64,000 nucleotides of DNA. It comes from an uncultured Gammaproteobacteria bacterium (GTDB taxonomy: Bacteria; Patescibacteriota; Patescibacteriia; CAZSQN01). Made by a program: the position numbers and the translations under genes. This document shows, piece by piece, positions 3,694-63,816 of this stretch (positions are counted from its first letter, which is position 1; the number at the start of each line of letters is the position of its first letter). The notes beneath the pieces are model-generated. The model did no database searches, was not told the origin of the DNA, and saw only the letters and a list, made by a program, of their open reading frames with translations. Where the stretch lies: NCBI GenBank assembly GCA_964609095.1, contig CAZSQN010000001.1:214117-278116 (forward strand). Reading direction: 5' to 3'.

Positions 3694-5118
3694 ATGGCTG
3701 ACAAAATAAGATCGGAAAGAATAAGCGCTTTGCCTCAAGATATTTTTGATGAATTGTTTAGAGATGACGAATCAGAGTTAATCCAGGATCTGATTAAAGA
3801 ACATAAACTTAAAAAAGGAACCGAAGATATTATCGCGGAGCTTATCAGAGAGTTATTTATAAAAGATATCAGTTTAGAAGATTTTGCTCCAAAAATTGCT
3901 AAAAAAATTAGCATGTCAGACGAACTTGGAAGAAAGATCGCGGTAGATATTGCCAAGACGCGGCTTTTGCCGCACGAAGATTATTTTGCCGGCGTGGGAA
4001 GGCAAATCGTGATTTGGGGAGGAGAGCCGATTAAAGCGGAAAAGATTAAACCAACATCCTTGCCCGCGGATGCCCCCAAGGGCAGGGAAGCCAAGGGCGC
4101 GGCTCCGGTTGCCGCTCCGACGGCGGAGAGCGCGCCGGCGGCCGCAAAATCTTCATTTGAGCAAAGGGCGGAAGTTGAGGAAGAAGCGGAAATTTTAAAA
4201 AAGCAAAAAGAAACGGCGAAAATCACCCCCGTTACCCAATCAATTGAAGATAAATTGAATGAGAAAATAAAAGCGGTAGTCAGCGAGGCAAAGATTGTTT
4301 TTGCCAATCCCGCGTTAACCAAACGATTTGAAACCATAATTTCCGCGCGGCTTCGGGACGTGCGCGACGGGGCGGAAACAAAGGAAATGCTCTTGCGGGC
4401 GGATAAGGTTGGGGGTTTGGGATTGGGCGCGGCAGAAGCGGAGCGGGTTAGTCAGATTCTAAATCGCGTTTTTGCCGAATTTAGCGGTTTATATAGGAAA
4501 GAGGAAGAGGCAAAAAGGAAAGCGTTTTTAGCCGAACAAGCCGAGCGCGAGGCCTTGCGCAAAGCGGAACGGGAGAGGCGCGAGCGCGAGGAGCGGGAGA
4601 AGCTTTACGCCCGCGTTACCGGAGTCGCGCCCAGCATTACGAAGTTAGAAGTTAGAAGTTCGAAGGTGGAACAAGTGTCAGTCAGACCTCCAGCTTCCAG
4701 CTTCTCCCGACATAAAGTCGGGATCCCGACCGAAGTGTCGGGACAAATTCCAACTACCAAGCCGCGCATGGAGGAAGTCAAGTTTACGCCAAAGATAACT
4801 GGTCCGGTGGAAGAACTGGCGCAAATGACTTTAATTGAGTTTCGCCGTCTTTCTAAAGACGCGAAAGAGGCGGTCTTGAAGATTGGGGATAAAATTGACC
4901 TTTTGGAAGAAGAAGATTTTGGGAAAAAAGTCGCCGGCATTAAGGCCTGGCAGGGATCGGGGGTAAACAAGCTTTATCTTGATTTGCTTAAGGATGGCTT
5001 GAACAGGGGTGTCGGCATTTCCGCCATTATTGATGAAAAAGCAAAAGGAGGAGCGGAAACTCTAACCAAAGCCGAATTTGATGCTATAATGGAGTTGAAC
5101 AGAAATTTAAGATTCTAA
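3694..5118 (+). CDS. Hypothetical charged/coiled-coil protein with an internal heptamer-repeat insertion
   Basis: 474-aa ORF, KE-rich, ERERREREEREK stretch. Nucleotides 4641-4707 carry (AGAAGTT)x3 plus a CCAGCTT-type inverted arm translated in frame. Confidence 0.45.
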   Translation: MADKIRSERISALPQDIFDELFRDDESELIQDLIKEHKLKKGTEDIIAELIRELFIKDISLEDFAPKIAKKISMSDELGRKIAVDIAKTRLLPHEDYFAGVGRQIVIWGGEPIKAEKIKPTSLPADAPKGREAKGAAPVAAPTAESAPAAAKSSFEQRAEVEEEAEILKKQKETAKITPVTQSIEDKLNEKIKAVVSEAKIVFANPALTKRFETIISARLRDVRDGAETKEMLLRADKVGGLGLGAAEAERVSQILNRVFAEFSGLYRKEEEAKRKAFLAEQAEREALRKAERERREREEREKLYARVTGVAPSITKLEVRSSKVEQVSVRPPASSFSRHKVGIPTEVSGQIPTTKPRMEEVKFTPKITGPVEELAQMTLIEFRRLSKDAKEAVLKIGDKIDLLEEEDFGKKVAGIKAWQGSGVNKLYLDLLKDGLNRGVGISAIIDEKAKGGAETLTKAEFDAIMELNRNLRF

Positions 5119-5671: not shown

Positions 5672-5675
5672 AAGA

Positions 5676-5750
5676 GGGTACAGGGGACAGGGTAGAGGGT
5701 ATAGTAAATTAAAAAACTAAACCCTAAACCCTAAACCCTAAACCCTAAAA
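5676..5750 (+). repeat. Heptamer-repeat leader element, CCCTAAA class (copy A): GGGTACAGGGGACAGGGTAGAGGGTATAG + spacer + (CCCTAAA)x4, ending ...AAAAATGTG
   Basis: Near-identical copy at 6451-6525; related copies at 39576-39643, 28572-28624 (minus) and 33101-33181 (minus), all abutting start codons. Confidence 0.8.
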
Positions 5751-5761
5751 ATGTGCCTGAG

Positions 5762-6445: not shown

Positions 6446-6450
6446 AACCA

Positions 6451-6525
6451 GGTTATAGGGGACAGGGTAGAGGGTATAGTAAATTAAAAAACTAAACCCT
6501 AAACCCTAAACCCTAAACCCTAAAA
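6451..6525 (+). repeat. Heptamer-repeat leader element, CCCTAAA class (copy B), directly upstream of virB4-like
   Basis: GGTTATAGGGGACAGGGTAGAGGGTATAGTAAATTAAAAAACTAAACCCTAAACCCTAAACCCTAAACCCTAAAAATGTG; the in-frame start of the following gene is the GTG overlapping the terminal ATG. Confidence 0.8.
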
Positions 6526-6527
6526 AT

Positions 6528-8438: not shown

Positions 8439-8515
8439 AATCTGGAATATGGAATCTGGAATTTAGAAAAGAAAATTCTAAATTCTAAATTCTAAATTCT
8501 AAATTCAGTTCTACC
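8439..8515 (+). repeat. Heptamer-repeat leader element, ATTCTAA class: imperfect (GGAATNT)n arm + aagaaa + (ATTCTAA)x4, ending 8 nt before the ATG at 8516
   Basis: Arms are imperfect reverse complements; same architecture as the CCCTAAA class; related copy at 42981-43059. Confidence 0.75.
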
Positions 8516-9192: not shown

Positions 9193-12100
9193 ATGAAATC
9201 TAAACTAAAAACAATTTTATTTACTTTACAGGTGTTTATGAAAAATAAACGTCGGCAAATATGCGCGTTCGCAATATTTTCTATTTTAGTTATCGTTGCC
9301 GCTCCAGTTCGGGCGGAACATCTAACAGATAGAAACGTTATCTTTTCAGAATTTAAGGGCCATATTCAATTTCGCGAGCTTCAGCCAGGCCACGGCAGTA
9401 ATTCTTACCCCGTTCCTTCAACTGAAAAAATTACTTTCTGGGATCCCGGTTATATTGACAGGTTCAGACCCGGCACCGTGGTTACCGACTTAAATGACAG
9501 CACGGTCAATCTTAACAATATCCAACTTGCCGAATGCAGCGGTTCCACCCCTTCGCTTGCTGGCGCGGGAAGCTGTGGCGGGCCCAATCTCTGCGTTTTC
9601 GCGAGAGTGATTCGTCCCAATCGAGCTAGTCCTTACATTGAGTGTACGCCACGGCATTTAAGAGCAGAAACTGTATATCGGCTTATGGCGCGAGGAGTGA
9701 CGGGCAACGGAACGGTAGATAACAATGCCGTAACCGGCATGAGTATGTGGGAGCCCGGAAGAGACGGTTCGCCTAATTCTGAAATTTTACAAACATTTTT
9801 CAAGACGCGCGCATGGACTCCGCCCACAGATTACTTATTTGATTTTGGCGACGCGGGAGTTGGTTTCCCTACGCTTCGCTCTGAAAATGGGCCGCGGCAT
9901 GATGTAAGTGGAAGAGTTTGGCTTGGAAATGACGTTGATGCCGAGTCCATGGCTTTGCGGTTCAATCTTGACGATGCGGATGGCGATGACGAAGACGGGA
10001 TGATAAGCGACAGCCCCCTTGTTGTTCGAGTAAGCTCCGGCAATATGACTGGCCCGGCTTACATCAACGCATGGGAAGATTGGAATAATAACGGCCGATG
10101 GGATATTAATGCCGACGGTAGTCCGGGCGATGAATGGATTGTGCGTAATCAACGTGTTGATGTGCGGCCAAATGCTCGGCAAGATGTTGCTTTGCTGCAG
10201 CCGCGCGTTGATGCGAACGGCAATCCCTTGAGAGCGGCGTGGTCTGACCCCTCGTTTCAGCTGCGTTTAACGGTAACAGAAAGACCAATTCCTGATGGTC
10301 GCCCCGCTATTAGCTCGTATCCAAGCGGAGAAACAGAAGATTATTATAATGGTCCTAATGATGGCGGAGGCGGAGGAGGTGGAGGCGGAGGAGGCGAGGA
10401 TGGAGATAGAGGCGGAGGTTTTGATTTTGGCGACGCGCCAGATCCGCGCTTTCCTTCGCTTCTTGCGAGCAACGGCGCCCGGCACCGCGATACTTCGGTT
10501 GTTTGGTTTGGCAATAGAGTCAGCGCCGAAGCAGACGCGCGAGTAATCGATAATGATACTGAAGATGACGGTCTTTTGTCGGCTTCTCCGTTAACCGTTC
10601 GCTTAAATACCGCCCGGAATGTCAGAGCCGGCGCGCGATTTTTCGTTAACATCCTTATTGACCGGAATAATAACGGCGTTTGGGAGCCGAATTTAGGCGA
10701 GTGGGTGGTGCAAAATCATATTTGGCGAGCATCCAGATTCCCATTTATAGAATCATTAATATTTAGACGGAATGTTTTGAAGTTTAATGTCAATTGGAAA
10801 CCCGAGCGTGAAGGGTGGCTTAGAATGACGGTTACCGAAGTTACCAAAGAGGACGGGAAATTAGTAAATTACAACGGTTCCTGGCTGACTGAATTTAGAG
10901 TCGGAGAAACCGAAGATTATAAAACTTTTAAAAAACCACCGGGTAAGCCACCGGGCAAACCGCCAAGCGAACCGCCGGGCAAACCGCCAGACAAGCCATC
11001 TACATCCACCCCTCCACTGACTCCAGTTGATAAAACTGTCAGCGCGGGTCTTAAACCCTCAAGCCCGCTTTATTTCCTGGACAAGCTTTCAGAAAAAGTA
11101 GATTTGGCGTTGACTTTTAATCCGGAAAAAAAGGTTAAAAAGGCGCTTTCTTACGCCCAGGAACGATTGGATGAAGTTGAAGCGTTGATGGTGGAAAATA
11201 AGCTGGAGGAGGCAAAAAAAGCCGGAGCGCTTTACGGTAAAAATATTGATTCGGCCGTTAAAATAATTAAAAAAATAAAAGACATTGCCCGCGCAGAAAG
11301 TTTGGTAACAAGCTTTTTTGATCAAGTAGCGCATTTCAATGAAAATATTGTCCGTTATGAAGATTCTGGACATGGCCCGTTCGTCCTCCCTCCTTGCTAT
11401 CCCGATCCCACTACTCACAGCAAAGAACCGTGCTTTCCTTATAAACCGCCAGAACCGTTTGTTCCGTTATCCGAAGGAGATCCGCGAAGCGAGGCCTCGG
11501 AAATAGATTTTCGCGCTGATAAATCAGAAATCACCTTAGGCGAAACGGTCACATTATTTTGGAAGATTACCGGTGTTGTTGAAGCAAATTATGGCAATCA
11601 AGCTCAAGGGCAGCTAGGCAATCCGCTCAACGGCTGGGAAGTGAGGCAAGGCGCTCGCGAAGAGATGCCGACTCAAATCGGAATCAATACCTATTTTATT
11701 GTCGCTAAAACACCAACTGGAGCCACGCTTGGTAAGGAAACGCAAGTTAAAGTAGTCGCACCGCCGCCTAAAGATACAGTTTCGCCGCCTCCGCCGCCCG
11801 AGCCGCCGGTCACGCCTTCAAAACCATCAGTAAGTTTAAGCTGCGATCCTGATCCTCTGGTTATATCTCATTATGATGAAGGTTTGTTAAAGATTAAGGT
11901 TTCACCCGAATCAGAAAAAATCAGTTCGCTGGACTACGAACGCGGCTTTAAAAATGTCACTGATGATCATACTGTTGTCATTCAGAAGAATAATAAAGAA
12001 ATTAAACTAATTGCGGCAAAACGGCATATTGCGCCGGATCAAAAAATAGAAATCCCGCTGGTCGCCAAATTTGAACGCAAAGAACTTGGAGAAGCAAAAG

Positions 12101-22925: not shown

Positions 22926-22993
22926 AAGGCAAAATATGATATAAAAAATTGTGATTGACGAATAGAATACGAGTCCCGCCCGCCATCGCTTTT

Positions 22994-23065
22994 GCCCCTG
23001 TAGTTCAACGGATAGAATGCAAGCTTGCGGAGCTTGAGATCGAAGTTCGATTCTTCGCGGGGGCA
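22994..23065 (+). tRNA. tRNA with anticodon GCG (Arg by the genetic code), 72 nt, no encoded CCA. Embedded in an 11-bp extended stem formed by the 5' leader (cccgccatcgc) and 3' trailer (gcgatggcggg)
   Basis: GCCCCTG-TA-GTTC-AACGGATA-GAAT-G-CAAGC-TTGCGGA-GCTTG-AGAT-CGAAG-TTCGATT-CTTCG-CGGGGGC-A; cloverleaf folds by hand, T-loop TTCGATT. The GCG anticodon is unusual for bacteria, so the isotype call is tentative. Confidence 0.6.
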
Positions 23066-23081
23066 TAGGCGATGGCGGGTA

Positions 23082-25187: not shown

Positions 25188-26546
25188 TTATTTCAATATC
25201 TCCAGAGCTTCAGTGACGGAGTTGATTTGGATTAAGGATTCGGACGATTCAAGTTTCGCGGCTTTGGGCACGAGCGCGTATTTGAATCCGAGTTTTTGCG
25301 CTTCGCGCACCCGGCGTTCAATTTCTTTTACCGGACGGATTTCGCCGGAGAGGCCGACCTCGCCTATAGCAGTCATATCTTTGGGAAAGGGTCTGCCTAT
25401 ATAAGCGGAAGCGATTGAAGCAAGAATGCCGAGATCGGCGGCTGGCTCGCGTATTTTAAGTCCGCCGCCAACATTCACATGCACGTCGGTATGGTCTAAA
25501 TACAAGCCGGCGCGACGGGAAAGCACGGCTAAAATCAAGTCCAATTTTTTGGGGTCAATTCCGGAGGCGCGCCTTTGCGGATATCCCCAAGATGTCTTGT
25601 GAGTTAAGGCCTGGATTTCCGCCAAAAGCGGCCGTGTGCCCTCAAGGAGCACGGTAATCACAGAGCCGGGAATGGCTGTTTTTCTTTCTTGTATAAAAAG
25701 AGCCGAGGGATTGGGCACTTCCATAAATCCGTTTTCAGTATGATTAAAAATGCCGACTTCGTCTGTCGCGCCAAACCTGTTTTTGCTTGCGCGGAGCACT
25801 CTGAAGGAATGTTGAGAATCGCCTTCAAGAGTAAGTACGACATCAACCAAGTGTTCCAGCGATTTTGGTCCGGCAACCAGCCCGTCTTTTCTGACTTGAC
25901 CCACCAGAATTATCGGAAGATTATTTTGTTTTGCGGTTTCGGTTAAAATGCTTACGGCCGCGCGAATTTCTCTCGGCGAGCCGCTTTTGCCGCCCTCTGC
26001 CCGTAAGGTGTTTACGGAATCAATGATAGAAAGCGCCGGGCGTTCTTTGGCAATGGTGGCGGCGATAGAGGCGGCGTCGGTTTCATTAAGAAAAAGCACG
26101 GAGGAGCCGATGGCGTTAATTCTCGCGAATCTGGAATAAATTTGTTCGGCTGATTCTTCGCCGGAAGTATAGAGCACCGGCCCTGATTTTTTGGCAATCG
26201 TTCCGCACACTTGCGCGAGAAGCGTGGATTTGCCTATGCCCGGTTCTCCGGAGAGGAGTATCACGCTTCCGGCCGCGATTCCTCCGTCCAACACGCGGTC
26301 AAATTCGTTAATGCCGGTTTTTATGCGCGGGGATTTGGGTAAGGATATCTCTTGGAGGGATATTGGTTTTAAGGCAGGGACTGTTGAATTTGGAATTTGG
26401 AATTTGGAATTTGATATTTTAGATTCCATATTCAAGATTCTAGATTCTGATAAAGATCCCCATTCGCCGCATTCAAAACAACGCCCAGCCCACTTTGGGG
26501 TCTGCGCGTCGCATTTGGAACAGACATAAACAATGCTCGATTTCAT
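25188..26546 (-). CDS. radA: DNA repair protein RadA/Sms, carrying an in-frame heptamer-repeat insertion in the zinc-finger/ATPase linker
   Basis: C4 zinc ribbon CSKCDAQ...CFECGEW, Walker A GEPGIGKSTLL, Lon-like C-terminus. Residues ESRILNMESKISNSKFQIPNS are encoded by the repeat at 26386-26452. Confidence 0.85.
   Translation of the reverse strand: MKSSIVYVCSKCDAQTPKWAGRCFECGEWGSLSESRILNMESKISNSKFQIPNSTVPALKPISLQEISLPKSPRIKTGINEFDRVLDGGIAAGSVILLSGEPGIGKSTLLAQVCGTIAKKSGPVLYTSGEESAEQIYSRFARINAIGSSVLFLNETDAASIAATIAKERPALSIIDSVNTLRAEGGKSGSPREIRAAVSILTETAKQNNLPIILVGQVRKDGLVAGPKSLEHLVDVVLTLEGDSQHSFRVLRASKNRFGATDEVGIFNHTENGFMEVPNPSALFIQERKTAIPGSVITVLLEGTRPLLAEIQALTHKTSWGYPQRRASGIDPKKLDLILAVLSRRAGLYLDHTDVHVNVGGGLKIREPAADLGILASIASAYIGRPFPKDMTAIGEVGLSGEIRPVKEIERRVREAQKLGFKYALVPKAAKLESSESLIQINSVTEALEILK
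26386..26452. repeat. Heptamer-repeat hairpin element (GAATTTG/AGATTCT arms) inside the radA coding sequence
   Basis: gaatttggaatttggaatttggaatttgatattttagattccatattcaagattctagattctg; same architecture as the intergenic leader elements; translated in frame. Confidence 0.7.
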
Positions 26547-28571: not shown

Positions 28572-28624
28572 AGGGTTTAAGGTTTAGGGTTTAGGGTCTT
28601 TTATACCCTGTACCCTGACCCATC
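28572..28624 (-). repeat. Heptamer-repeat leader element, CCCTAAA class (copy D, minus orientation), between the TolB-like stop and the dsbA-like start
   Basis: Minus strand reads GGGTCAGGGTACAGGGTATAAAAGACCCTAAACCCTAAACCTTAAACCCT-ATG. Confidence 0.75.
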
Positions 28625-28630
28625 TATCCT

Positions 28631-29839: not shown

Positions 29840-29841
29840 AT

Positions 29842-29957
29842 CCCGCACATAATTTGCTTAATACAACACATAATTTATGTTATGCGCTGTGATGGATAAA
29901 CAAATTATATTTTTTTTTAATCAGATAAACGTAAAACATAAGCAAATTATGTGCGGG
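29842..29957. repeat. Perfect 19-bp inverted repeat (cccgcacataatttgctta ... taagcaaattatgtgcggg) separated by 78 nt, immediately upstream of the TolB-like start
   Basis: Seen directly; the arms are exact reverse complements. Confidence 0.8.
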
Positions 29958-29958
29958 A

Positions 29959-33100: not shown

Positions 33101-33181
33101 TGTTTTGAGGGTATAGGGTTTAGCGTTTAGGGTTTAGGGAAATTCACTAAACGCTATACGCTAACCGCTAAACGCTTTGGT
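33101..33181 (-). repeat. Heptamer-repeat leader element (copy E; GCGTTTA-type arm + CCCTAAA-type arm), filling the entire htpX-stop to clpC-start spacer
   Basis: Minus strand: TAA-ACCAAAGCGTTTAGCGGTTAGCGTATAGCGTTTAGTGAATTTCCCTAAACCCTAAACGCTAAACCCTATACCCTCAAAACA-ATG. Confidence 0.75.
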
Positions 33182-36815: not shown

Positions 36816-37222
36816 TATTTTTGGAGCCCCTTTATCCATCCTCCAAGCATTTTGCCGATTTCGTTTAAATGCTCCGAAAGCATAATGTATTTTTTGTTGT
36901 CTATATTTTTTAGCTCCCAAGCGATCTGAAGAAAGAATTTTAGCAAATTCAATTTTCCGCTTGCCTTATACAACAACGGCAATTTTTGTTCTTTGCTTAA
37001 AGAGCCGGAGATGAACAAGAGTTCTAAAATATCAAGAAAACAAAGTTCAATTTTTGTTCCCAGCGCGTATTTTGATTTTTTAGGAAGATGATTTTTAAAT
37101 TCATCCCAAAGCTTATATACCGAGACAAATCTTTGGATTATCGGTAGTGTGTGTGTGTGTGTGTGTGTGTGTGGAAGCTTTTTCTCTGATTCGTTTATAT
37201 TATGAAAATCCAATTGAGCCAT
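36815..37222 (-). CDS. avd: Avd-like accessory variability determinant (four-helix-bundle protein), encoded divergently to the RT. The N-terminal region contains a (HT)n stretch encoded by the (GT)13 microsatellite
   Basis: C-terminal EHLNEIGKMLGGWIKGLQK and internal KSKYALGTKIELCFLDILELL match the four-helix-bundle/Avd family as I recall it. 135 aa from the ATG at 37222, which overlaps the RT start by 21 nt on the other strand. Confidence 0.55.
   Translation of the reverse strand: MAQLDFHNINESEKKLPHTHTHTHTLPIIQRFVSVYKLWDEFKNHLPKKSKYALGTKIELCFLDILELLFISGSLSKEQKLPLLYKASGKLNLLKFFLQIAWELKNIDNKKYIMLSEHLNEIGKMLGGWIKGLQK
37147..37172. repeat. (GT)13 dinucleotide microsatellite
   Basis: tgtgtgtgtgtgtgtgtgtgtgtgtg, 30 nt upstream of the RT start codon and inside the avd 5' coding region. 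Confidence 0.95.
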
Positions 37223-39583: not shown

Positions 39584-39643
39584 GGGATAGGGTAGAGGGT
39601 ATAGAAACTACTAAACCCTAAACCCTAAACCCTAAACCCTAAA
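39576..39643 (+). repeat. Heptamer-repeat leader element, CCCTAAA class (copy C), overlapping the PGM stop codon and ending at the murI ATG
   Basis: GGGTATAGGGGATAGGGTAGAGGGTATAGAAACTACTAAACCCTAAACCCTAAACCCTAAATTG-ATG. Confidence 0.8.
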
Positions 39644-41520: not shown

Positions 41521-41583
41521 TTTCAAATTTATGATTTCAAATTTCAGAATTTTGAAATCAACAATCTGAAATCTGAAATTAAA
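41521..41583 (+). repeat. Heptamer-repeat leader element, CTGAAAT/TTTCAAA class, spanning the rseP stop to the pheS ATG
   Basis: tttcaaatttatgatttcaaatttcagaattttgaaatcaacaatctgaaatctgaaattaaa-ATG; arms are imperfect complements. Confidence 0.75.
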
Positions 41584-42979: not shown

Positions 42980-42980
42980 A

Positions 42981-43059
42981 TGAATTTGGAATCTGGAATC
43001 TTGAATTTTGATTTAATTAAATTCTAGATTCTAATTTCTAAATTCTAGATTCTTGAAAG
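42981..43059 (+). repeat. Heptamer-repeat leader element, ATTCTAA/GGAATNT class, upstream of pheT
   Basis: gaatttggaatctggaatcttgaattttgatttaattaaattctagattctaatttctaaattctagattcttgaaag-ATG. Confidence 0.75.
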
Positions 43060-45501
43060 ATGAATATCAACATTTCTTACAACTGGCTTAAAGAGTATCT
43101 TTCGACGAAAAAATCGCCGGCAGATTTGGCGCGCCTGCTCTCTCTTTCCGGCCCATCGGTTGAGAGAATCCATCATTTTGGGAGCGAATGGGATAAAATC
43201 GTGGTTGGCAAGGTTTTGGAGATTAAACCGCATCCCAACGCGGATAAATTAAGAATTGCGATTACTGATATTGGCAGTAGAAAAATGGAGATTGTCTGCG
43301 GCGGAACAAATCTTCAAAAAGAAATGAAGGTGGCGGTGGCGCTCTCCGGCGCTCGCGTGCGCTGGCACGGAGAAGGGGAATTGATTGAGCTTAAGCCAAC
43401 GGAAATCCGCGGCGTAAAGTCCGAGGCCATGATCGCGGCCGCCAATGAAATAGGATTATTTGAGCTTTTTCCGCACAAAGAAAGGGAAGTGATGGATTTA
43501 AGCGGACTAAAGGCAAAACCCGGCGCGGCCCTGACTCTTGCTTTGGGTCTTGAAGATTATGTTTATGACACGGAAGTGACCACCAACAGGCCGGACCTTT
43601 TGGGGATAATCGGCTTTGCCCGCGAGGCCAGCGCCATCACGCGCGAGAAATTTGACGAGAAAAAGATTTTGTCTTTGGAAAAATATCCCAAGCCGGGTTT
43701 AAAAGACGCGATTGCGGTTAAGGTCTTGGATAAGAGACATTGTCCGCGCTACACGGCCGCGGTTGTGCGTGGCGTAAAAGTTGGTCCGTCTCCTTTGTGG
43801 ATGAGGATTCGTCTTGCCCGCGCCGGCATAAGACCGATTTCAAATATCGTTGACATTACAAATTATGTGATGCTGGAGATGGGAGAGCCAATGCACGCGT
43901 TTGATTTAAAAAAGCTTAACGGCGGCATTGTTGCGCGCAAAGCCCGCGCCGGAGAAAAGATTAAAGTTTTAAATGGGGCCGATTATAAGCTTTCCGATGA
44001 AACATTAGTTATTGCCGACGCGGAAAAACCCATTGCCATTGCCGGCATTATGGGCGGAGCGGAAACCGGAGTCAGCGGTGAAACAACCGACATTGTTTTG
44101 GAAGCGGCGACTTTTGATCCTGTGAGTATCAGGAGGAGTTCGCGTTTATTAAATCTCCGAAGCGAGTCGTCATTGCGGTTTGAAAAGGGTCTCTCAACCG
44201 ACTTGCCGCACCGCGCGTTGGCTAGAGCTCTTCAGCTTGTGCTGGAGATTGCCGGCGGAACTTGTGGGCCGATGTCTGACATTCGTTCCGCGGTTTATAA
44301 ACCGTTCAAATTTTCCATAGGCGTGGAAGAAGCGCAAAGGTTAATCGGCGCTCCCATTGCCGTCGGAGAGATGAAACGGATTTTGACCTCATTGGGCTTT
44401 AAGCTACAAGCTACAAGCTACCCCGCACCAGAACAAGTTCGGTACGGGGCAGGCAAGCTACAAGCTCGTGTGCCCTATTTCCGCGACCACGATATTGAAT
44501 CTGGACGGGATTTGGCAGAGGAAGTGGCGCGCGTTTACGGCTATCATAAACTTCCGTCAGTTCTGCCTGAAGGCAAAATCCCGTTGCGCGAGCGCCCCGA
44601 TGAACTTATTTGGGAGGACAAAATTAAAGAAGCGCTGGCCGGAGCGGGAGGAACAGAAATAATCACTTATTCTTTCACCTCGGCGGGCGCGATGAGAAAA
44701 GTTGATTTTGATGAAAAAAGCGCAACGCGCATTGCCAATCCTCTGACTTCTGATTTTGAATATATGCGGACTAGTTTAATCCCGTCGGCCCTGGAAGTTG
44801 TGTCAAAAAATCAGGAAAATTTTCCAACGGTGAAACTTTTTGAAATCGCCAATACTTATCATCCGCGGAAAAATGATTTGCCGGAAGAGTCGCCAAATCT
44901 TCTTGTGGCCGTTTCCGCAAAGAAAAATGAGCCCTCGCCTTACTACACGGTAAAAGGAATACTGGAATTGGTTTCTTGCAGGTTGGGGTTAGATTTTGAT
45001 TTTGAAAATAAATGTCTCCAAGCCGAACTTTGGCATCGGGGAAGGAGCGTTTGTGTTAGAAATAACGGGAAGATTGTCGGCGCCATGGGCGAACTGCATC
45101 CAAAAGTTCTTGCCAATTTTGGCATAGAACATCGGCTGGCCGCGCTTGAACTTCATCTTGGCGAGCTCTATGGGGCAATGAGAGAGATTGGCGCATATAT
45201 TCCGGTTCCGGAGTTTCCGGCCGCAAAAAGGGACGTTTCTTTCATTATTTCCGAGCGTACGCCGTATGAAGAGGTTGTAAAAATAATGAAGGCGGCGGAT
45301 AAACTGATTGTTGGCGCGGAGCTTTTTGATATTTTCACTGGCCCCTCAACTGCGCTCGGGGCGGGCAAAAAGAGCATGGCGTTTCATATAACCTATCAAT
45401 CAAAAGAACGGACGCTTTCTTCGGAAGAGGTGGAAGCGGCGCACAAAAGATTGGCTGATATGCTTAAATTGAAGATTAGAGCGGAAGTGAGAAAGGGTTA
45501 A
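43060..45501 (+). CDS. pheT: Phenylalanine--tRNA ligase beta subunit, with an in-frame palindromic repeat insertion in the B5-like region
   Basis: tRNA-binding N-terminus, B3/4, B5 and anticodon-binding C-terminus recognisable. The conserved LGF...VPYFR...DLAEEVARVYGY block is interrupted by ATSYPAPEQVRYGAGKLQ, encoded by the element at 44401-44468. Confidence 0.85.
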   Translation: MNINISYNWLKEYLSTKKSPADLARLLSLSGPSVERIHHFGSEWDKIVVGKVLEIKPHPNADKLRIAITDIGSRKMEIVCGGTNLQKEMKVAVALSGARVRWHGEGELIELKPTEIRGVKSEAMIAAANEIGLFELFPHKEREVMDLSGLKAKPGAALTLALGLEDYVYDTEVTTNRPDLLGIIGFAREASAITREKFDEKKILSLEKYPKPGLKDAIAVKVLDKRHCPRYTAAVVRGVKVGPSPLWMRIRLARAGIRPISNIVDITNYVMLEMGEPMHAFDLKKLNGGIVARKARAGEKIKVLNGADYKLSDETLVIADAEKPIAIAGIMGGAETGVSGETTDIVLEAATFDPVSIRRSSRLLNLRSESSLRFEKGLSTDLPHRALARALQLVLEIAGGTCGPMSDIRSAVYKPFKFSIGVEEAQRLIGAPIAVGEMKRILTSLGFKLQATSYPAPEQVRYGAGKLQARVPYFRDHDIESGRDLAEEVARVYGYHKLPSVLPEGKIPLRERPDELIWEDKIKEALAGAGGTEIITYSFTSAGAMRKVDFDEKSATRIANPLTSDFEYMRTSLIPSALEVVSKNQENFPTVKLFEIANTYHPRKNDLPEESPNLLVAVSAKKNEPSPYYTVKGILELVSCRLGLDFDFENKCLQAELWHRGRSVCVRNNGKIVGAMGELHPKVLANFGIEHRLAALELHLGELYGAMREIGAYIPVPEFPAAKRDVSFIISERTPYEEVVKIMKAADKLIVGAELFDIFTGPSTALGAGKKSMAFHITYQSKERTLSSEEVEAAHKRLADMLKLKIRAEVRKG
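44401..44468. repeat. Palindromic heptamer-repeat element inside pheT: (AAGCTAC)x2-3, a ccccg...cgggg hairpin, then (CAAGCTA)x2
   Basis: aagctacaagctacaagctaccccgcaccagaacaagttcggtacggggcaggcaagctacaagct; duplicated KLQA codons flank it. Confidence 0.7.
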
Positions 45502-49757: not shown

Positions 49758-49872
49758 ACCCCGCGCATAAATTTGTTGAGCGCGAATAGGGTGTGGAAAA
49801 ACTAATAAAATAATTCATTAACGCAGAAGCGTCTGTCGTACAGACGCTTAGCGCGGCGAGACACGAGCAAAA

Positions 49873-51099: not shown

Positions 51100-51183
51100 A
51101 GCTTGTAGCTTTTAGCTGTTAGCTTTTAGTTGTTTTGGTTTATTTCTATCAGTTAAAAGCTAAAAGCTAAAAGCTTTTTTATT
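51100..51183 (+). repeat. Heptamer-repeat leader element, AAAAGCT class, upstream of thrS
   Basis: gagcttgtagcttttagctgttagcttttag...ttaaaagctaaaagctaaaagctttttt-att-ATG; arms are complementary. Confidence 0.75.
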
Positions 51184-56472: not shown

Positions 56473-57804
56473 ATGCCCCATGGCTACCATATTATAACCT
56501 TTGGCTGTCAAATGAATAAGAATGATTCCGAGCGCGCGGCGGCGCTTTTGGAGGGCTTGGGTTTTTCGTCAAAAGACAAGCCGGAAGATTCCGATTTGGT
56601 CATCATCAATACTTGTTCGGTGCGGCAAACGGCGGAAGACAGGGTTTACGGCATGGTTGAGAAGTTGGCTAAATTGAAGGAGAAAAATTCGCATTTTGTT
56701 TTGGCTGTTATGGGCTGTATGCCCGGGCGCGATAAAGACGGCTCTTTGCGCAAGAAATTGCCGGCAGTTGACTTCTTCTTCCCGACCGCGAGAATTACGG
56801 AGTTGCCGAAATGGATAGCGGAAACCTTTCCGGAAATTGTTAATTCGGATGTTCTGGCCGAAGATTATCTTAAGCTCGCGCCAAAGAGAGAAACGCGGGT
56901 CAGCGGATACTTGACCATCCAGACGGGCTGCAATTATTTTTGCACTTATTGCGTTGTGCCTTTTGCCCGCGGACTGGAGCGGAACAGGCCGGTTGCCGAT
57001 ATTTTGGAAGAGGCGCGCGCTCTGGCGGAGTCCGGGTGCCTGGAAATTACGCTTTTGGGCCAAACGGTTAATTCTTTCCGCGCCGCCGATCCGGAGAACT
57101 TCTCCAAAAATAATCCTTATCACGACCATTTTGCCGCTCTGCTTTGGGAAATAAACCAGATTCCGGGCATTAGCCGCGTACATTGGACGGCGCCGCACCC
57201 GCGCCATATGACCGATGAGGTAATTAACGCGCTTGCTCTTCCCAAACAGGTTAATTTTCTCCATCTGCCGGTGCAATCGGGCGATAACGAAATATTGCGG
57301 AAAATGAATCGGCGCTACAAGGCGGAGGAGTATCTGGAACTTGTAGAAAAGATAAACGCCCGCAGGCCCGGGATAGCTTTGGGCACGGATATAATCGTCG
57401 GGTTTTGCGGAGAGACAGAGGAGCAGTTTGCGCGTACCGTGGAATTATACAAAAAGGCGGATTTTGATATAGCGTTTTTGGCGATGTATTCGCCGCGCTC
57501 CGGCACGGCTGCCAAAACGGCTTTTGCCGACACTGTGCCGCGCGAGGAAAAACGCCGCCGCTGGAGGGTGCTCCAAGATTTGATGGAAGAGATTGTCTTG
57601 GCTAAGAATCAGAAGTTTGTCGGCAACACCGCGGAAGTATTGGTTGATAAATGCGACTCCCGCGGACCGGCTCAAATTTGTTTGGGAAATTCCAATGAGA
57701 TGAAGGTTGTGCAGTTTAACGGCACGCCGGATGATGTGGGCAAGATTGTTAAAGTTAAAATAACCAAAGCGCGCGAATGGGTGCTGGAAGGAACAAAAAT
57801 TTAA
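56473..57804 (+). CDS. miaB: Radical-SAM methylthiotransferase (MiaB/RimO family: MTTase N-terminal domain, CxxxCxxC, TRAM)
   Basis: HIITFGCQMN (MTTase N-terminus), CNYFCTYC radical-SAM cluster, TRAM-like C-terminus. ATG at 56473 inside the longer track ORF. Confidence 0.7.
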   Translation: MPHGYHIITFGCQMNKNDSERAAALLEGLGFSSKDKPEDSDLVIINTCSVRQTAEDRVYGMVEKLAKLKEKNSHFVLAVMGCMPGRDKDGSLRKKLPAVDFFFPTARITELPKWIAETFPEIVNSDVLAEDYLKLAPKRETRVSGYLTIQTGCNYFCTYCVVPFARGLERNRPVADILEEARALAESGCLEITLLGQTVNSFRAADPENFSKNNPYHDHFAALLWEINQIPGISRVHWTAPHPRHMTDEVINALALPKQVNFLHLPVQSGDNEILRKMNRRYKAEEYLELVEKINARRPGIALGTDIIVGFCGETEEQFARTVELYKKADFDIAFLAMYSPRSGTAAKTAFADTVPREEKRRRWRVLQDLMEEIVLAKNQKFVGNTAEVLVDKCDSRGPAQICLGNSNEMKVVQFNGTPDDVGKIVKVKITKAREWVLEGTKI

Positions 57805-58810: not shown

Positions 58811-58830
58811 GTGTGAGGGTGGTTTATATT

Positions 58831-59772
58831 ATGAGGAAATTACCAAAGATTATCGTTATAGCCGGGCCGACCGCAACGGGTAAGACCGATTTGGGTATTA
58901 AGATTGCCAAAAAATTTAATGGAGAAGTAATTAGCGCTGACTCAAGACAGATTTATCGTGGAATGGATATAGGGACGGGCAAACCTAAAATTTCAGATTT
59001 CAGATTTCAGATTTCAGAAGTTGATGGCATAAAACATCACTTGATAAGTATCGTGGATCCGGATGAAGAATTTACCGTTGCGCTTTGGAAACAAGAAGCA
59101 ATCGCGGCGATTAAAAATATCTTAACGCGCAATAAATTGCCGATAATTGTCGGCGGTACGGGACTTTATATTAAATCATTGGTGGAAAATTTGGATATTC
59201 CTCAAGTGCCGCCGGATTTTGCTTTGCGCAAGAAGCTGGAATTAAGAATTAAGAAGCAAGGATTGAAAGTTTTATATAAAGAACTTTTGAAATTAGATCC
59301 GGGAGCAAAAGGCGTTGTTGACCAGCGTAATTCCCGGCGAGTCATCAGGGCGCTGGAGGTCTGCCTTATAACGGGCAAGCCGTTTAGTTCGCTTCAAAAA
59401 CAAGGTGAGCCGATGTTTGAAGTTTTAGAGCTGGGAATAGACGTCCCGAGAGAAAAACTTTATAAGCGCATAGATAGACGCGTTTTGGAAATGTACAAGG
59501 AAGGGTTGCTTAAAGAAACAAAAAAATTTTTGAAAAGATATTCGCCGCATATTCCCGCAATGAGCGGGATTGGCTATAAGGAAGCAGGGGAGCATTTGGC
59601 CGGTAAAATCAGTTTGGAAGAAGCAATTGTTAAAACGCAGCTTCGTACCCATGCTTATGCCCGCCGCCAGCTTATCTGGTTTAGGAAGGATAAGAAGATC
59701 AAATGGATAAAGACTCAAGAACAGGCGGAAAAGCTGGTTGAGATTTGCCTTTTAGCTCTAAATGTGTTATAG
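58831..59772 (+). CDS. miaA: tRNA dimethylallyltransferase, carrying an in-frame (ATTTCAG)x4 heptamer insertion
   Basis: P-loop IVIAGPTATGKT, conserved QIYRGMDIGT. The block between GT(G/A)KP and HHLI is lengthened by ISDFRFQISE, encoded by 58989-59018. Confidence 0.85.
   Translation: MRKLPKIIVIAGPTATGKTDLGIKIAKKFNGEVISADSRQIYRGMDIGTGKPKISDFRFQISEVDGIKHHLISIVDPDEEFTVALWKQEAIAAIKNILTRNKLPIIVGGTGLYIKSLVENLDIPQVPPDFALRKKLELRIKKQGLKVLYKELLKLDPGAKGVVDQRNSRRVIRALEVCLITGKPFSSLQKQGEPMFEVLELGIDVPREKLYKRIDRRVLEMYKEGLLKETKKFLKRYSPHIPAMSGIGYKEAGEHLAGKISLEEAIVKTQLRTHAYARRQLIWFRKDKKIKWIKTQEQAEKLVEICLLALNVL
58989..59018. repeat. (TTTCAGA)x4 heptamer tandem repeat inside miaA
   Basis: aatttcagatttcagatttcagatttcaga; same heptamer class as the pheS leader element. 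Confidence 0.8.
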
Positions 59773-63195: not shown

Positions 63196-63348
63196 AACGC
63201 GTTCCTTTGCTAAAAGACGCCACCCAGGCGCCTTTTTATATTATCATATCTGGTTTCGCGGGGCGAGGCCCCGCACATAGTTTATGGAAATATTTTTATA
63301 GCTTTGTAACTCTATGTTAAGACAGGTTCGCGCTAAATTTAATGTATT

Positions 63349-63816
63349 TTAAGAGTCTATGTGCGGGGCGAGGTGTCCCGCGTATCCTCCGGTAGAGCCG
63401 AATCCGCCTCTGGACTTTGATTGCATCTCGGGAACTTCTTGCCAGTCGGCGCGTTCCATTTTTACAAATATCCCTTGAGCTATGCGCTCGCCGCGGGAAA
63501 TTTGCGCCGGAGCCGATTTGATGTTTAAAATCTGTATTTTTAATTCATCATCCGGACCGCAATAGTCCTGATCAACGATGCCGATGCCGTTAGGCACGAC
63601 CAGCCCCTTTTTAAGCGGAAGCGAGGAGCGGGACGCCAGGATAAGCATATAACCCGGCGGGGTTTGCACAATAACATTTACCGGCACGAGCGCGATTTCT
63701 CCGCCCGGCACCAGCGCGTCTTCTCTCGCGAGCAAATCAAAAGCCACCGCGCCTTCTGACTCATAGCGCGGCAGGGGCAGAGAGTTGTCAACTCGTTTAA
63801 TTTTTATGGACAACAT
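63349..63816 (-). CDS. dut: dUTP diphosphatase
   Basis: dUTPase motifs (GAVAFDL, ASRSSL, GIVDQDYCG, RGGFGSTG); 155 aa. Confidence 0.8.
   Translation of the reverse strand: MLSIKIKRVDNSLPLPRYESEGAVAFDLLAREDALVPGGEIALVPVNVIVQTPPGYMLILASRSSLPLKKGLVVPNGIGIVDQDYCGPDDELKIQILNIKSAPAQISRGERIAQGIFVKMERADWQEVPEMQSKSRGGFGSTGGYAGHLAPHIDS

Follow-up and report, generated by a model that had tools for sequence, protein, structure and literature searches.

The gene pheT of an uncultured Candidatus Uhrbacteria bacterium (Patescibacteria/CPR) contains two kinds of repeats at one site, and we consider it probable that two independent layers of selfish or neutral repeats overlap here: tandem arrays of 7-nt units and a palindromic hairpin element of 33 nt (33-mer). 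The heptamer arrays behave as simple repeats of the STRR kind, located for the most part between genes, and they are not parts of one mobile element. The 33-mer is found in frame in conserved genes of other contigs and belongs to a dispersed family, a much smaller counterpart of the Rickettsia palindromic elements (RPE).

The analysis covered a stretch of 64,000 nucleotides, called the window in the following. A sequence-only reading of this DNA had described heptamer and palindromic repeats inside four ORFs and had taken them for in-frame insertions resembling RPE. The repeats are present at all four sites as described and the reading frame is kept at each of them, a property that is uninformative by itself because only in-frame cases leave an intact ORF. 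NCBIfam and Pfam profile matches bore out the identities of pheT, radA, and miaA; ORF 3694..5118 belongs to a widespread protein family and gave no Pfam or NCBIfam match. The 57.1 kb of ORF sequence contain strong arrays at these four places and no others:

43060..45501, + strand: pheT, with (AAGCTAC)x3 at 44401-44421, AAGCTACAAGCT at 44455-44466 and a CCCCG/CGGGG hairpin between them
25188..26546, - strand: radA, with (GAATTTG)x4 at 26386-26413, followed by AGATTCT-type units to ~26450
26384..26450, - strand: radA hairpin with heptamer arms of the GAATYTG/AGATTCT family, antisense in the gene
58990..59018, + strand: miaA array (ATTTCAG)x4.1, in the MiaA loop between GTGKP and HHL
4641..4707, + strand: ORF 3694 hairpin with heptamer arms, (GAAGTTA)x3.6 at 4641-4665 and (TCCAGCT)x2.3 at 4689-4704

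The number of repeats is far beyond chance: perfect arrays with a period of seven occur 14 times in the window, whereas each of the remaining periods between 2 and 13 has 0-2 such arrays and shuffled sequences have none. A typical array comprises 4-5 units (~28-36 nt), and the units in the window are CTAAACC, AAATTCT, AGCTTTT, ATTTCAG, and AAGCTAC. At least 10 arrays lie in only 6.9 kb of non-coding DNA, compared with four in the coding 57.1 kb, so that they are ~20 times denser between genes. Intergenic arrays form the arms of 60-80 nt hairpins between genes of the same strand, and ~12 spacers are made wholly of such heptamer-armed hairpins, whose folding z-scores range from -5 to -7. These include:

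5672..5752, + strand: F1 hairpin, (AGGGTAN)x4, loop, (CTAAACC)x4.7, a few bases upstream of the next start codon
6446..6527, + strand: second F1 hairpin, near-identical to the 5672-5752 copy
8439..8515, + strand: F2 hairpin, (GAATCTG)-type arm, loop, (AAATTCT)x4.9
28572..28630, - strand: F1 hairpin between minus-strand genes
33101..33181, - strand: F1-variant hairpin between minus-strand genes
39584..39643, + strand: intergenic F1 hairpin
41521..41583, + strand: hairpin with (AATTTCA)/(AATCTGA) arms, its unit being the reverse complement of the miaA unit
42980..43059, + strand: F2 hairpin between an EamA-like gene and pheT
51100..51183, + strand: F4 hairpin, (AGCTTKT)x4 / (TAAAAGC)x3.1

Reverse-complemented, the first unit of the F4 hairpin gives the pheT unit. 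The spacer orthologous to 28572..28630 likewise carries an F1 hairpin in the relative L004 (7757-7830), the spacer at 41521..41583 is missing in L013, in which its two genes overlap, and the EamA-like gene and pheT overlap (ATGA) in both L013 and L014, which therefore have no spacer there; in the window, ATGAAT stands at both ends of the 42980 hairpin. Fold energies of sense and antisense strands of the intergenic hairpins revealed no consistent strand preference and varied by family.

Within radA, miaA, and ORF 3694, the arrays occupy places where the protein varies. The radA hairpin lies in the linker joining the zinc ribbon to the ATPase domain, where it is translated as ESRILNMESKISNSKFQIPNS, and its unit family is common to the intergenic hairpins at 8439 and 42980. 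Depending on the genome, the DNA at this position has units of CAAATTC or AAATCCG; the relative L004 has an array as in the window that is split by a 16-nt palindrome, and L015 has a single arm without a palindrome. The miaA array, likewise a single arm without a hairpin, is read in all three frames as ISDFRFQIS, and relatives carry (ATTCCAA)x4, (ATCCGAA)x3.4, or (GAATTAG)x5 at the site where the window has the unit TTTCAGA. In MiaA and RadA, the arrays take the place of a variable loop or linker that was already there and alter its net length only slightly, and the ORF 3694..5118 hairpin sits in a hypervariable linker of the encoded protein. The idea that the inserts are built of heptamers is not supported at these three sites, where the arrays lie in variable loops or linkers in which relatives have other heptamer arrays. 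In 25 of 510 homologues of the four proteins, and in none of the shuffled controls, a stretch of 9 aa or more corresponds exactly to a perfect heptamer array translated in three frames. Each of the three coding hairpin elements folds better as antisense than as mRNA, e.g., for radA -28.8 kcal/mol on the + strand vs. -10.7 on the mRNA strand. RadA is annotated in the window's genome without its zinc ribbon, an example of repeats misleading gene callers. The palindrome TCCGCCA...TGGCGGA from the radA of a relative was considered as a family and dropped, its sole match in the window being an ordinary terminator.

The pheT site is different in that it contains both layers:

44401..44420, + strand: left array part of AAGCTAC units, encoding K448-S453 and the first two bases of Y454
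44421..44453, + strand: 33-nt palindromic mini-element CCCCGCACCAGAACAAGTTCGGTACGGGGCAGG, an in-frame and lineage-specific insertion of 11 codons
44454..44466, + strand: right array part, C AAGCTAC AAGCT, encoding KLQA in the second beta-strand

The left array part encodes the first strand of the beta-hairpin of the B5 domain. The spacing from LGF to VP measures 12 aa in 78 of ~110 PheT homologues vs. 23 in the window, and the heptamer-coded residues, which have equal length in these 78, are not extra residues. L013 and L014 have degenerate versions of the 33-nt pheT array in their DNA and lack the core. None of the close PheT homologues has the core in its protein sequence, and L001, L013, and L014 lack it in their DNA as well; a PheT scan of genome contigs returned distant matches only (33-35% identity) among the matches listed. 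Judged by this comparison, the GC-rich core is a genuine insertion of exactly 33 nt that is specific to the lineage. The insert is thus 11 aa long and not ~18 aa as estimated from the window by itself, its length is a multiple of three as an in-frame insert was expected to have, and the two KLQA copies, formerly read as duplications at the junctions, are the two halves of the pre-existing 33-nt array. With a net insertion of exactly 33 nt, no target-site duplication was left behind. Lineage specificity accordingly holds for the core, which close relatives lack, and not for the heptamer residues, whose length is conserved in homologues. Structure mapping, also suggested by the sequence-only reading, places the insert at the turn of the B5 hairpin in the PheT of E. 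coli and P. aeruginosa. In an AF2 model of the window's PheT, in which the heptamer-coded residues form the two strands of this hairpin, strands 448-451 and 466-470 flank a loop of residues 456-463 with pLDDT <50, and the inserted 11-residue loop at the tip of the B5 beta-hairpin is accordingly predicted to be disordered. The octamer GAACAAGT, present in the cores of pheT and ORF 3694, was considered as a common core and dropped as chance, because the best further match, at 56611, falls in the conserved NTCSVR motif of MiaB.

The 33-mer folds into a hairpin (z-score -4 to -6) whose 12-bp stem contains a single bulge and closes a loop of 4 nt; a tail of 4 nt follows, which is CARG, or CYTG on the opposite strand. 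Its length equals 11 codons and all six frames are free of stops, which means that no ORF is ever broken by its insertion. At least 120 exact matches to its 19-nt centre were found in metagenome contigs with unrelated flanks; the search needed an exact 19-mer, and the counts cover such copies only. Conservation is confined to a block of 33 nt with random flanks. The pairing of the stem exceeds that of all 2000 shuffles and compensatory changes occur in it, with wobble-compatible variants numbering 85 on one strand vs. 16 on the other, stem statistics that are possibly inflated by a few subfamilies. The density is ~1 per 10-60 kb, usually with one copy per contig, and the 64-kb window contains one copy, compared with its ~30 arrays in total. 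Most contigs bearing the 33-mer are not array-rich.

Open frames contain 48 of 113 copies (42%), in all frames and both orientations, and approximately half of the copies are intergenic. Ten host families were named by NCBIfam profiles, and the host genes include ValRS, ArgRS, GatA, TopA, RecG, HolA, FtsW, MurF, and PrmC. Alignment of a ValRS carrying the 33-mer with the solved structure 1GAX reveals a gap of exactly 11 aa. The 33-mer is near-identical, while RecG and MiaB of the host contigs share only 43% and 40% identity with the proteins of the window; the distance of the host contigs was judged by this 40-43% identity and by their groundwater and sediment sources. Orthologous insertions with sequence differences were found in independent assemblies (L021 vs. 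L027; L017, L044, and L065). The resemblance to RPE claimed for all four sites therefore stands for the GC-rich core of pheT, a member of a dispersed family of 11-codon inserts such as that in ValRS, and is not supported for the heptamer arrays. Comparison with Rfam 15 gave no match at the 33-mer of the window at the gathering threshold or for eight loci at E-values up to 1, and no match to the 33-mer was found in plasmids and phages. A literature search on heptamer or palindromic elements in Patescibacteria/CPR found nothing, and no published description of the 33-mer was found.

RPE were reportedly described by Ogata et al. in 2000 and 2002. They are ~100-150 bp long, are confined to Rickettsia, occur in frame in unrelated conserved genes with one conserved peptide per family, and their inserts are translated in the host protein in surface regions compatible with folding, as given in PMC10969869. 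The 33-mer is like RPE a dispersed, conserved palindromic family inserted in frame at tolerant sites of conserved genes, including aminoacyl-tRNA synthetases. It differs from them in size and family, in having six open frames of which several are used, in the large intergenic share, and in its occurrence outside Rickettsia, in contigs with proteins ~40% identical to each other, and it is not known to be related to RPE in sequence. REP sequences, for which RAYT transposases are described, are extragenic and species-specific, number hundreds per genome, and carry a GTAG or CGTC tag (PMC3733652; PMC3116915). Similar to REP, the 33-mer is a single imperfect GC-rich hairpin of 20-40 nt that ends on one side in a conserved tetranucleotide, short and single-stranded; it lacks a target-site duplication, and its strand-specific conservation suggests recognition as single-stranded DNA. 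Unlike REP, it has the CYTG (CARG) tail in place of the GTAG or CGTC tag, a low copy number of ~1 per 10-60 kb, a frequent location within ORFs, and a distribution common to divergent genomes. It does not qualify as a DDE-type MITE, having inverted termini but no general flanking repeat, or as a CRISPR, as it usually occurs once per contig and is nowhere regularly spaced.

The STRR1-3 of heterocystous cyanobacteria have the consensus units CCCCAAT, TTGGTCA, and CAACAGT, and these units are not those of the window arrays. STRR and other heptameric long simple-sequence repeats go back to Mazel 1990 and Mrazek 2007, as cited in PMC4692102 and PMC4679880. They share with the window arrays the excess of period seven, tandem 7-nt units in ~4 copies, a dispersed and mostly intergenic location near gene ends, a fixed orientation, and many different units; moreover, the (CCCTAAA)n family of the window is G-rich on the opposite strand, as are the Xanthomonas and Nostoc repeats (PMC4692102). 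Unlike STRR, the window arrays belong to the phylum Patescibacteria/CPR, have other units and paired inverted arms that fill whole spacers, and recur in frame at fixed loops of conserved proteins with unit turnover between relatives. Nostoc SDR are said by Elhai et al. 2008 to be hairpin elements of 21-27 nt nested in heptamer arrays; compared by description, the pheT 33-mer is likewise a very small hairpin (tens of nt) nested in a tandem heptamer array, but only ~6% of the 33-mer copies are in arrays and in-frame spread into essential genes is dominant. Borg tandem repeats are perfect, arise in ORFs, add low-complexity or disordered segments, and have units that are multiples of 3 nt (PMC9879509). 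Window arrays are similar as perfect tandem repeats within ORFs and differ by their 7-nt unit, which takes translation of the repeat through all three frames and leaves only certain total lengths tolerable.

Several other explanations have to be weighed against two independent layers. Near-identical dispersed hairpins (5672-5752, 6446-6527, and a third at 39584), a radA element of the same family as two intergenic hairpins, and the absence of hairpin-bearing spacers from L013 and L014, whose genes overlap, are what one would expect if each site (e.g., 44401-44468) were one composite mobile palindromic element of heptamers that transposed in frame in the manner of RPE. We hold this to be quite improbable: the pheT heptamer residues are homologous, length-conserved, and strand-forming with an extra part of only 33 nt, the MiaA and RadA arrays replace an existing loop or linker with units differing among relatives, and the arrays in miaA and the radA of L015 are single-armed without a palindrome. 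Alternatively, both layers could be causally linked, the 33-mer or its enzyme making a 7-bp target duplication; each cycle of insertion and precise excision would then add one heptamer, and the arrays would be footprints of the element. Seven of 111 copies lie exactly between identical 7-nt direct repeats, all of them within the CAGG-tail subfamily (7 of its 28 copies), compared with 0.54% adjacent identical 7-mers at random positions and no flanking repeats of 5, 8, 9, or 10 nt. The units vary by site, as expected from the local target sequence, and the 42980 hairpin has ATGAAT of the ancestral gene junction at either end. Against this link, pheT and ValRS have each gained precisely 33 nt net, which means that there is no duplication there, ~94% of copies have no flanking repeat, the pheT array is of ancestral length, and the window has ~30 arrays and one 33-mer while most 33-mer contigs are not array-rich. 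A search over many offsets gave no general target-site duplication, with 7-nt flank identity in array-embedded copies only. Taken together, we regard such a link as unlikely.

Somewhat less doubtful, albeit still rather unlikely, is a role of the hairpins as functional RNA elements in intercistronic processing, stability, or translation, with the coding copies kept to regulate the host mRNA. The intergenic hairpins fit their spacers exactly, 2-10 nt separate the perfect arm from the start codon that follows, with a fixed orientation (5/5 in the CTAAACC family), an F1 hairpin is kept at an orthologous spacer of a genome with ~70% protein identity, and G-rich heptamers of Xanthomonas and Nostoc (PMC4692102) and TAACTGA repeats of Beggiatoaceae (PMC4679880) are placed similarly. 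However, orthologous spacers usually have unrelated units or are missing, the coding hairpins (3/3) fold less well on the mRNA strand, and the miaA array forms no hairpin. It is very improbable that the inserted peptides are adaptive, for instance by giving the proteins new interaction loops: they do lie in surface loops and linkers and persist in essential genes across lineages, but the 33 nt are read in three sense frames and in antisense frames among the hosts and yield unrelated peptides, the pheT loop is predicted to be disordered, and units at one site change wholesale between relatives. An assembly artefact, adapter sequence, or chance has a practically negligible probability; the data are metagenome assemblies, but arrays and 33-mer are shorter than one sequencing read, the ORFs are intact, the 33-mer varies in a compensatory manner, orthologous insertions of differing sequence occur in independent assemblies, and shuffle statistics exclude chance.

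According to the favoured explanation of two independent layers, the Uhrbacteria lineage would accumulate short tandem arrays of 7-nt units, mostly as paired hairpin arms in spacers. Coding arrays would survive only in surface loops or linkers, in a stop-free orientation and with total lengths that keep the frame, and, read in all three frames, would yield peptides with a periodicity of 7 aa. Arrays at one site may be repeatedly homogenised or re-expanded, so that relatives differ in the unit found at a given position. Slipped-strand or template-switch processes have been put forward to explain why heptameric repeats are generally in excess among bacteria, and such processes may also drive this turnover. 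Homogenisation within an essential gene is hard to reconcile with slippage by single units, as gaining or losing 7 nt shifts the frame, and this speaks against the two-layer view, as do the 7 of 111 repeat-flanked 33-mers, which hint that the layers may not be independent. The 33-mer, as the other layer, would have been inserted mid-array at the tip of the B5 beta-hairpin of PheT, adding a loop of 11 residues, and would have reached numerous essential genes in uncultured bacteria that are only distantly related. Its mobility is suggested by its distribution among sequenced contigs; an enzyme may act in trans and move it in the form of a single-stranded hairpin, and for such an enzyme the strand 5'-CYTGCCCCGYACCGAACTTGTTCTGGTGCGGGG is a candidate single-stranded DNA substrate. 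ORFs between two inverted 33-mers in L047, which encode a large serine recombinase inside inverted repeats of 167 nt, were considered as an autonomous element and set aside as a suggestive single case that could be an assembly hairpin. Both layers are presumably functionally neutral passengers in the proteins.

CPR bacteria have tiny, streamlined genomes, and despite this streamlining selfish DNA would be present within their most conserved genes. The occurrence of near-identical 33-mers in hosts whose proteins are only ~40% identical points to horizontal spread or strong sequence selection, and thus to a putative enzyme. The 33-mer would be the smallest protein-compatible palindromic element known to us and a second, independent case of a phenomenon that was thought to be largely peculiar to Rickettsia. 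Through the repeats, proteins that serve as phylogenetic markers acquire lineage-specific loops, and the (CCCTAAA)n arrays resemble the telomere repeats of plants. In-frame arrays at fixed sites with turnover of their units provide a natural system for tolerance and homogenisation of non-triplet repeats in essential genes. If the layers were causally linked after all, this would give a mechanistic origin to the STRR-like heptamer repeats described in 1990 and would explain why, in one subfamily, a quarter of the 33-mer copies have identical heptamers directly on both sides. As a single-stranded hairpin spreading horizontally across Patescibacteria into essential genes, the 33-mer would be the smallest known ORF-compatible mobile element.

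The window belongs to a Candidatus Uhrbacteria (Patescibacteria/CPR) genome; NCBI lists PheT and MiaA proteins under this name that show 100% identity to those of the window. All four coding repeats proposed by the sequence-only reading, which likened them to in-frame inserts of the Rickettsia palindromic element (RPE) type, were found as described, in the following genes:

43060..45501, + strand, pheT (NCBIfam, Pfam)
25188..26546, - strand, radA (NCBIfam, Pfam)
58813..59772, + strand, miaA (NCBIfam, Pfam)
3694..5118, open reading frame without a family match in NCBIfam or Pfam, member of a large family (2258 matches)

In pheT, a true RPE-like in-frame insertion is confirmed for a 33-nt hairpin core (33-mer) at 44421-44453. 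In a set of 120 PheT homologues, approximately 110 of which could be scored for the distance between the LGF and VP motifs, this distance is 12 residues in 78, while it is 23 in the window. The DNA reads (AAGCTAC)x3 minus the last base, the 33 nt, and C AAGCTAC AAGCT, and without the 33 nt the remainder is a perfect 33-nt array that encodes KLQATSYKLQA. Same-length degenerate versions of this array are present in the relatives L013 (AAACTAAAAGCTACAAGCAAAAAGCTGCAAGCT) and L014, and L001 shows little periodicity at this position. In an AlphaFold2 model of PheT (mean pLDDT 87.5), the heptamer-coded KLQA and KLQAR form the beta-strands 448-451 and 466-470, the 11-residue insert lies in a loop with pLDDT <50, and alignment to solved PheT structures places the site at a hairpin turn of the B5 domain. 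Given the 12-residue norm, the array in relatives and the mapping to strands, the heptamers, which had been counted as part of the insert, are not an insertion in pheT; the core alone is.

A search of metagenome contigs with the 19-nt centre of this core as query returned at least 120 matching stretches; among those listed, two are on viral contigs, at least one of them being a chance coding match, and the 33-mer has no match in plasmids (7.3 Gb), phages (2.3 Gb) or Rfam. When 109 distinct copies are aligned, conservation is confined to 33 nt, CCCCGCACCAGAACAAGTTCGGTRCGGGGCARG, with sharp edges and random sequence on both sides; the window copy is a complete member. Read directly, all six frames of the 33-mer are free of stop codons, which by our own estimate is expected for about 4% of random 33-mers. 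For 48 of 113 distinct copies the surrounding frame continues without a stop for 40 codons or more in both directions; 35 of these copies are in sense orientation, distributed over all three frames, and 13 in antisense. Hosts include ValRS, ArgRS, GatA, TopA, RecG, a P-type ATPase, MurF, HolA, FtsW and PrmC. Compared with the Thermus thermophilus structure 1GAX, the 33-mer in the ValRS host corresponds to an exact 11-residue gap, and in a host RecG and a host MiaB, which share 43% and 40% identity with the respective proteins of the window, the 33-mer is almost unchanged.

The folded 33-mer comprises a 12-bp stem with a single bulge, a loop of 4 nt and a tail of 4 nt, and compensatory substitutions in the stem replace CG by TA or AT. 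The strand 5'-CYTGCCCCGYACC...GGTGCGGGG has 85 wobble-compatible variants versus 16 on the opposite strand; pairing on the former strand is retained in 642 of 684 cells, above all 2000 column shuffles, a figure that subfamily structure may inflate. No target-site duplication was found at the PheT or ValRS insertion, nor any general flanking repeat of the copies. MITE-like intergenic elements of approximately 100-118 nt were observed in the window at 29841-29958, 63268-63369 and possibly 49759-49872, with terminal inverted repeats (T/C)CCCGCACATA...TATGTGCGGG(A/G). As these termini share CCCCGCAC with the 33-mer, the latter might be a minimal member of their terminal-repeat superfamily.

In the comparison contigs L018 (~4670-4830), L037 (~2430-2590), L055 and L069, a recurrent composite consists, in order, of 23 nt copied from a tRNA gene's 5' end, the 33-mer, some 35 nt that include TTTTACCCCGYAC (a second left-arm half-site), and the complete tRNA gene; it looks as if a longer 33-mer relative had inserted into tRNA genes and the 5' end of the tRNA had been duplicated or restored. 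A large serine recombinase of 573 aa is encoded in L047 (3533-5379) between 167-nt inverted repeats (99% complementary). Within each repeat the 33-mer is enclosed by a larger palindrome, CGAGCCCGAG...CTCCGCGAGGGCGAGG, which is seen again in about 10 other contigs; the arrangement may represent an invertible or mobile unit or else an assembly hairpin. In L015 (6629-7054), a tRNA-Arg gene is seemingly split by an insertion with TCCCGCAC...GTGCGGGA ends that has a complete tRNA-Arg copy of its own. In the window, the tRNA-Arg(gcg) gene at 22993-23066 is bracketed by 20-nt inverted repeats (90% complementary; CCCGCCATCGCTTTTGCCCC / GGGGCATAGGCGATGGCGGG, 22979-23079) that would lengthen the acceptor stem into a long helix. 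L001 has, within 9284-9573, a small GIY-YIG ORF between pheS and an EamA-like gene, where the window has a 1-nt spacer, with inverted repeats CCCCGTTAGAAGCC / GGCTTCTAACGGGG on both sides; the same termini bracket the ClpB/M48 spacer (L001, 2384-2509).

Period 7 stands alone among the tandem repeats of the window. Perfect arrays of period 7 number 14 in the window, those of the other periods from 2 to 13 number 0-2 each, and shuffles contain none; TRF reports about 30 period-7 rows. The 6.9 kb of non-coding sequence holds at least 10 strong arrays versus four in 57.1 kb of ORFs, an approximately 20-fold difference in density, those four being the coding sites listed. About 12 same-strand spacers of 59-84 nt are made up wholly of one hairpin with heptamer arrays as both arms (fold z-scores -5 to -7), the start codon of the next gene following 2-10 nt past the end of the perfect arm, and operon ends carry ordinary GC-stem terminators with a T-run. 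The F1 family, (AGGGTAN)4-loop-(CTAAACC)4.7, keeps the same orientation to the downstream gene in 5 of 5 cases, and a single gene lies between near-identical hairpins both in the window (5672, 6446) and in L004, the nearest relative (18742, 20740). The perfect F1 arm is (CCCTAAA)n (window 5717-5749, 6492-6524 and 39611-39643; L004 7788-7823), which is the plant-type telomere repeat; such arms could set off contamination or telomere screens, and their complement could form G-quadruplexes. Between divergent genes, shortly before the one that starts at 37202, a perfect (GT)13.5 dinucleotide repeat occupies 37147-37173 and may be a phase-variable tract.

The nearest relative, with about 70% protein identity to the window, has repeat-armed hairpins in the orthologous spacers with usually unrelated units of period 7, 8 or 9, the family being retained in one case. 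In L013 and L014 the genes flanking the window's hairpin spacers overlap or abut, leaving no spacer. Compared with these two relatives, the ancestral stop/start overlap CTAAAATGAAYATC has given way at 42980-43059 to a hairpin of 80 nt that begins and ends with ATGAAT; every unit of its left arm closes with GAA, as though the junction heptamer had seeded the arm through tandem duplication.

Coding repeats occur only in the stop-codon-free orientation, and mRNA-strand folding is weaker than antisense in three of three coding hairpin elements. Among 510 homologues of the four proteins, 25 contain an exact three-frame translation, at least 9 aa long, of a perfect heptamer array, versus 0 for shuffled controls, and units recur across proteins (e.g., NVKCQMS in one RadA and two MiaA homologues). 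The ORF 3694 hairpin lies in a hypervariable proline-, serine- and alanine-rich linker and the RadA array in the variable linker between zinc ribbon and ATPase domain; the latter linker spans 40-50 residues (mode 43) among homologues, against 50 in RadA of the window and 54 in that of the nearest relative. L004 radA shares the GAATTTG units, split by a perfect 16-nt palindrome (net +12 nt), and another relative, L015, has (AAATCCG)x4.4 at this position. The complete radA ORF of 452 aa covers the RadA model from one end to the other; the public annotation (P0121, 415 aa) begins at a TTG just within the heptamer region and lacks the zinc ribbon, and the gene caller appears to have been misled by the repeat. 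The MiaA GTGKP-HHL loop comprises 8 or 10 residues in most homologues and 16-22 in a clade with 7-aa-periodic peptides. At this one site the DNA has different units: the window has (TTTCAGA)x4, L011 (ATTCCAA)x4, L012 (ATCCGAA)x3.4 and L016 (GAATTAG)x5. In L011 (6001-7050; MiaA of the nearest relative, GCA_040960175.1), PDEEF is followed by an in-frame palindromic insert of 108 nt (36 aa) that has the termini ACCCCGCTCTTTGGTC...GACCAAAGGGCGGGGT and is a second, larger RPE-like insertion in this gene family.

Identical 7-nt repeats flank 7 of 111 copies of the 33-mer, all of the CAGG-tail subfamily (7 of 28) and all inside heptamer arrays with mostly CAAxxxx units; adjacent identical 7-mers occur at 0.54% of random positions, and flanking repeats of length 5, 8, 9 or 10 were found in none of the 111 copies. 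Either the arrays are preferred or tolerated targets of the 33-mer, or the 33-mer helps to make them; the net insertion of exactly 33 nt in the two best-defined cases, PheT and ValRS, argues against duplication there. Array richness is absent from most 33-mer-bearing contigs.

Both an excess of heptameric repeats in bacteria and the cyanobacterial STRRs are known (PMC4692102, PMC4679880), and polymerase slippage is proposed as the source of this excess in work cited in the latter. G-rich heptamers of Xanthomonas and Nostoc prefer four units and lie near ORFs, and TAACTGA repeats precede start codons in Beggiatoaceae (PMC4692102, PMC4679880). In-frame palindromic repeats in many genes are known from RPEs (PMC10969869), and single-hairpin elements with a tetranucleotide tag from REPs (PMC3733652). 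The repeats described here share features with each of these systems, but at least one defining feature of each is absent, and searches of the literature gave no report of such heptamer or palindromic elements in Patescibacteria. The RPE-like reading is partly right: it holds for the 33-nt pheT insertion, but not for the heptamer arrays, which are a separate STRR-like phenomenon and mainly intergenic. Heptamer-armed hairpins also lie on both sides of pheT (893-991, 3893-3986) in L007, a distant contig labelled Candidatus Nanoarchaeia whose PheT is 35% identical and can be aligned with residues 1-811 of the bacterial-type PheT of the window. Because this pheT is hairpin-flanked, such hairpins may range more widely than one Uhrbacteria clade.
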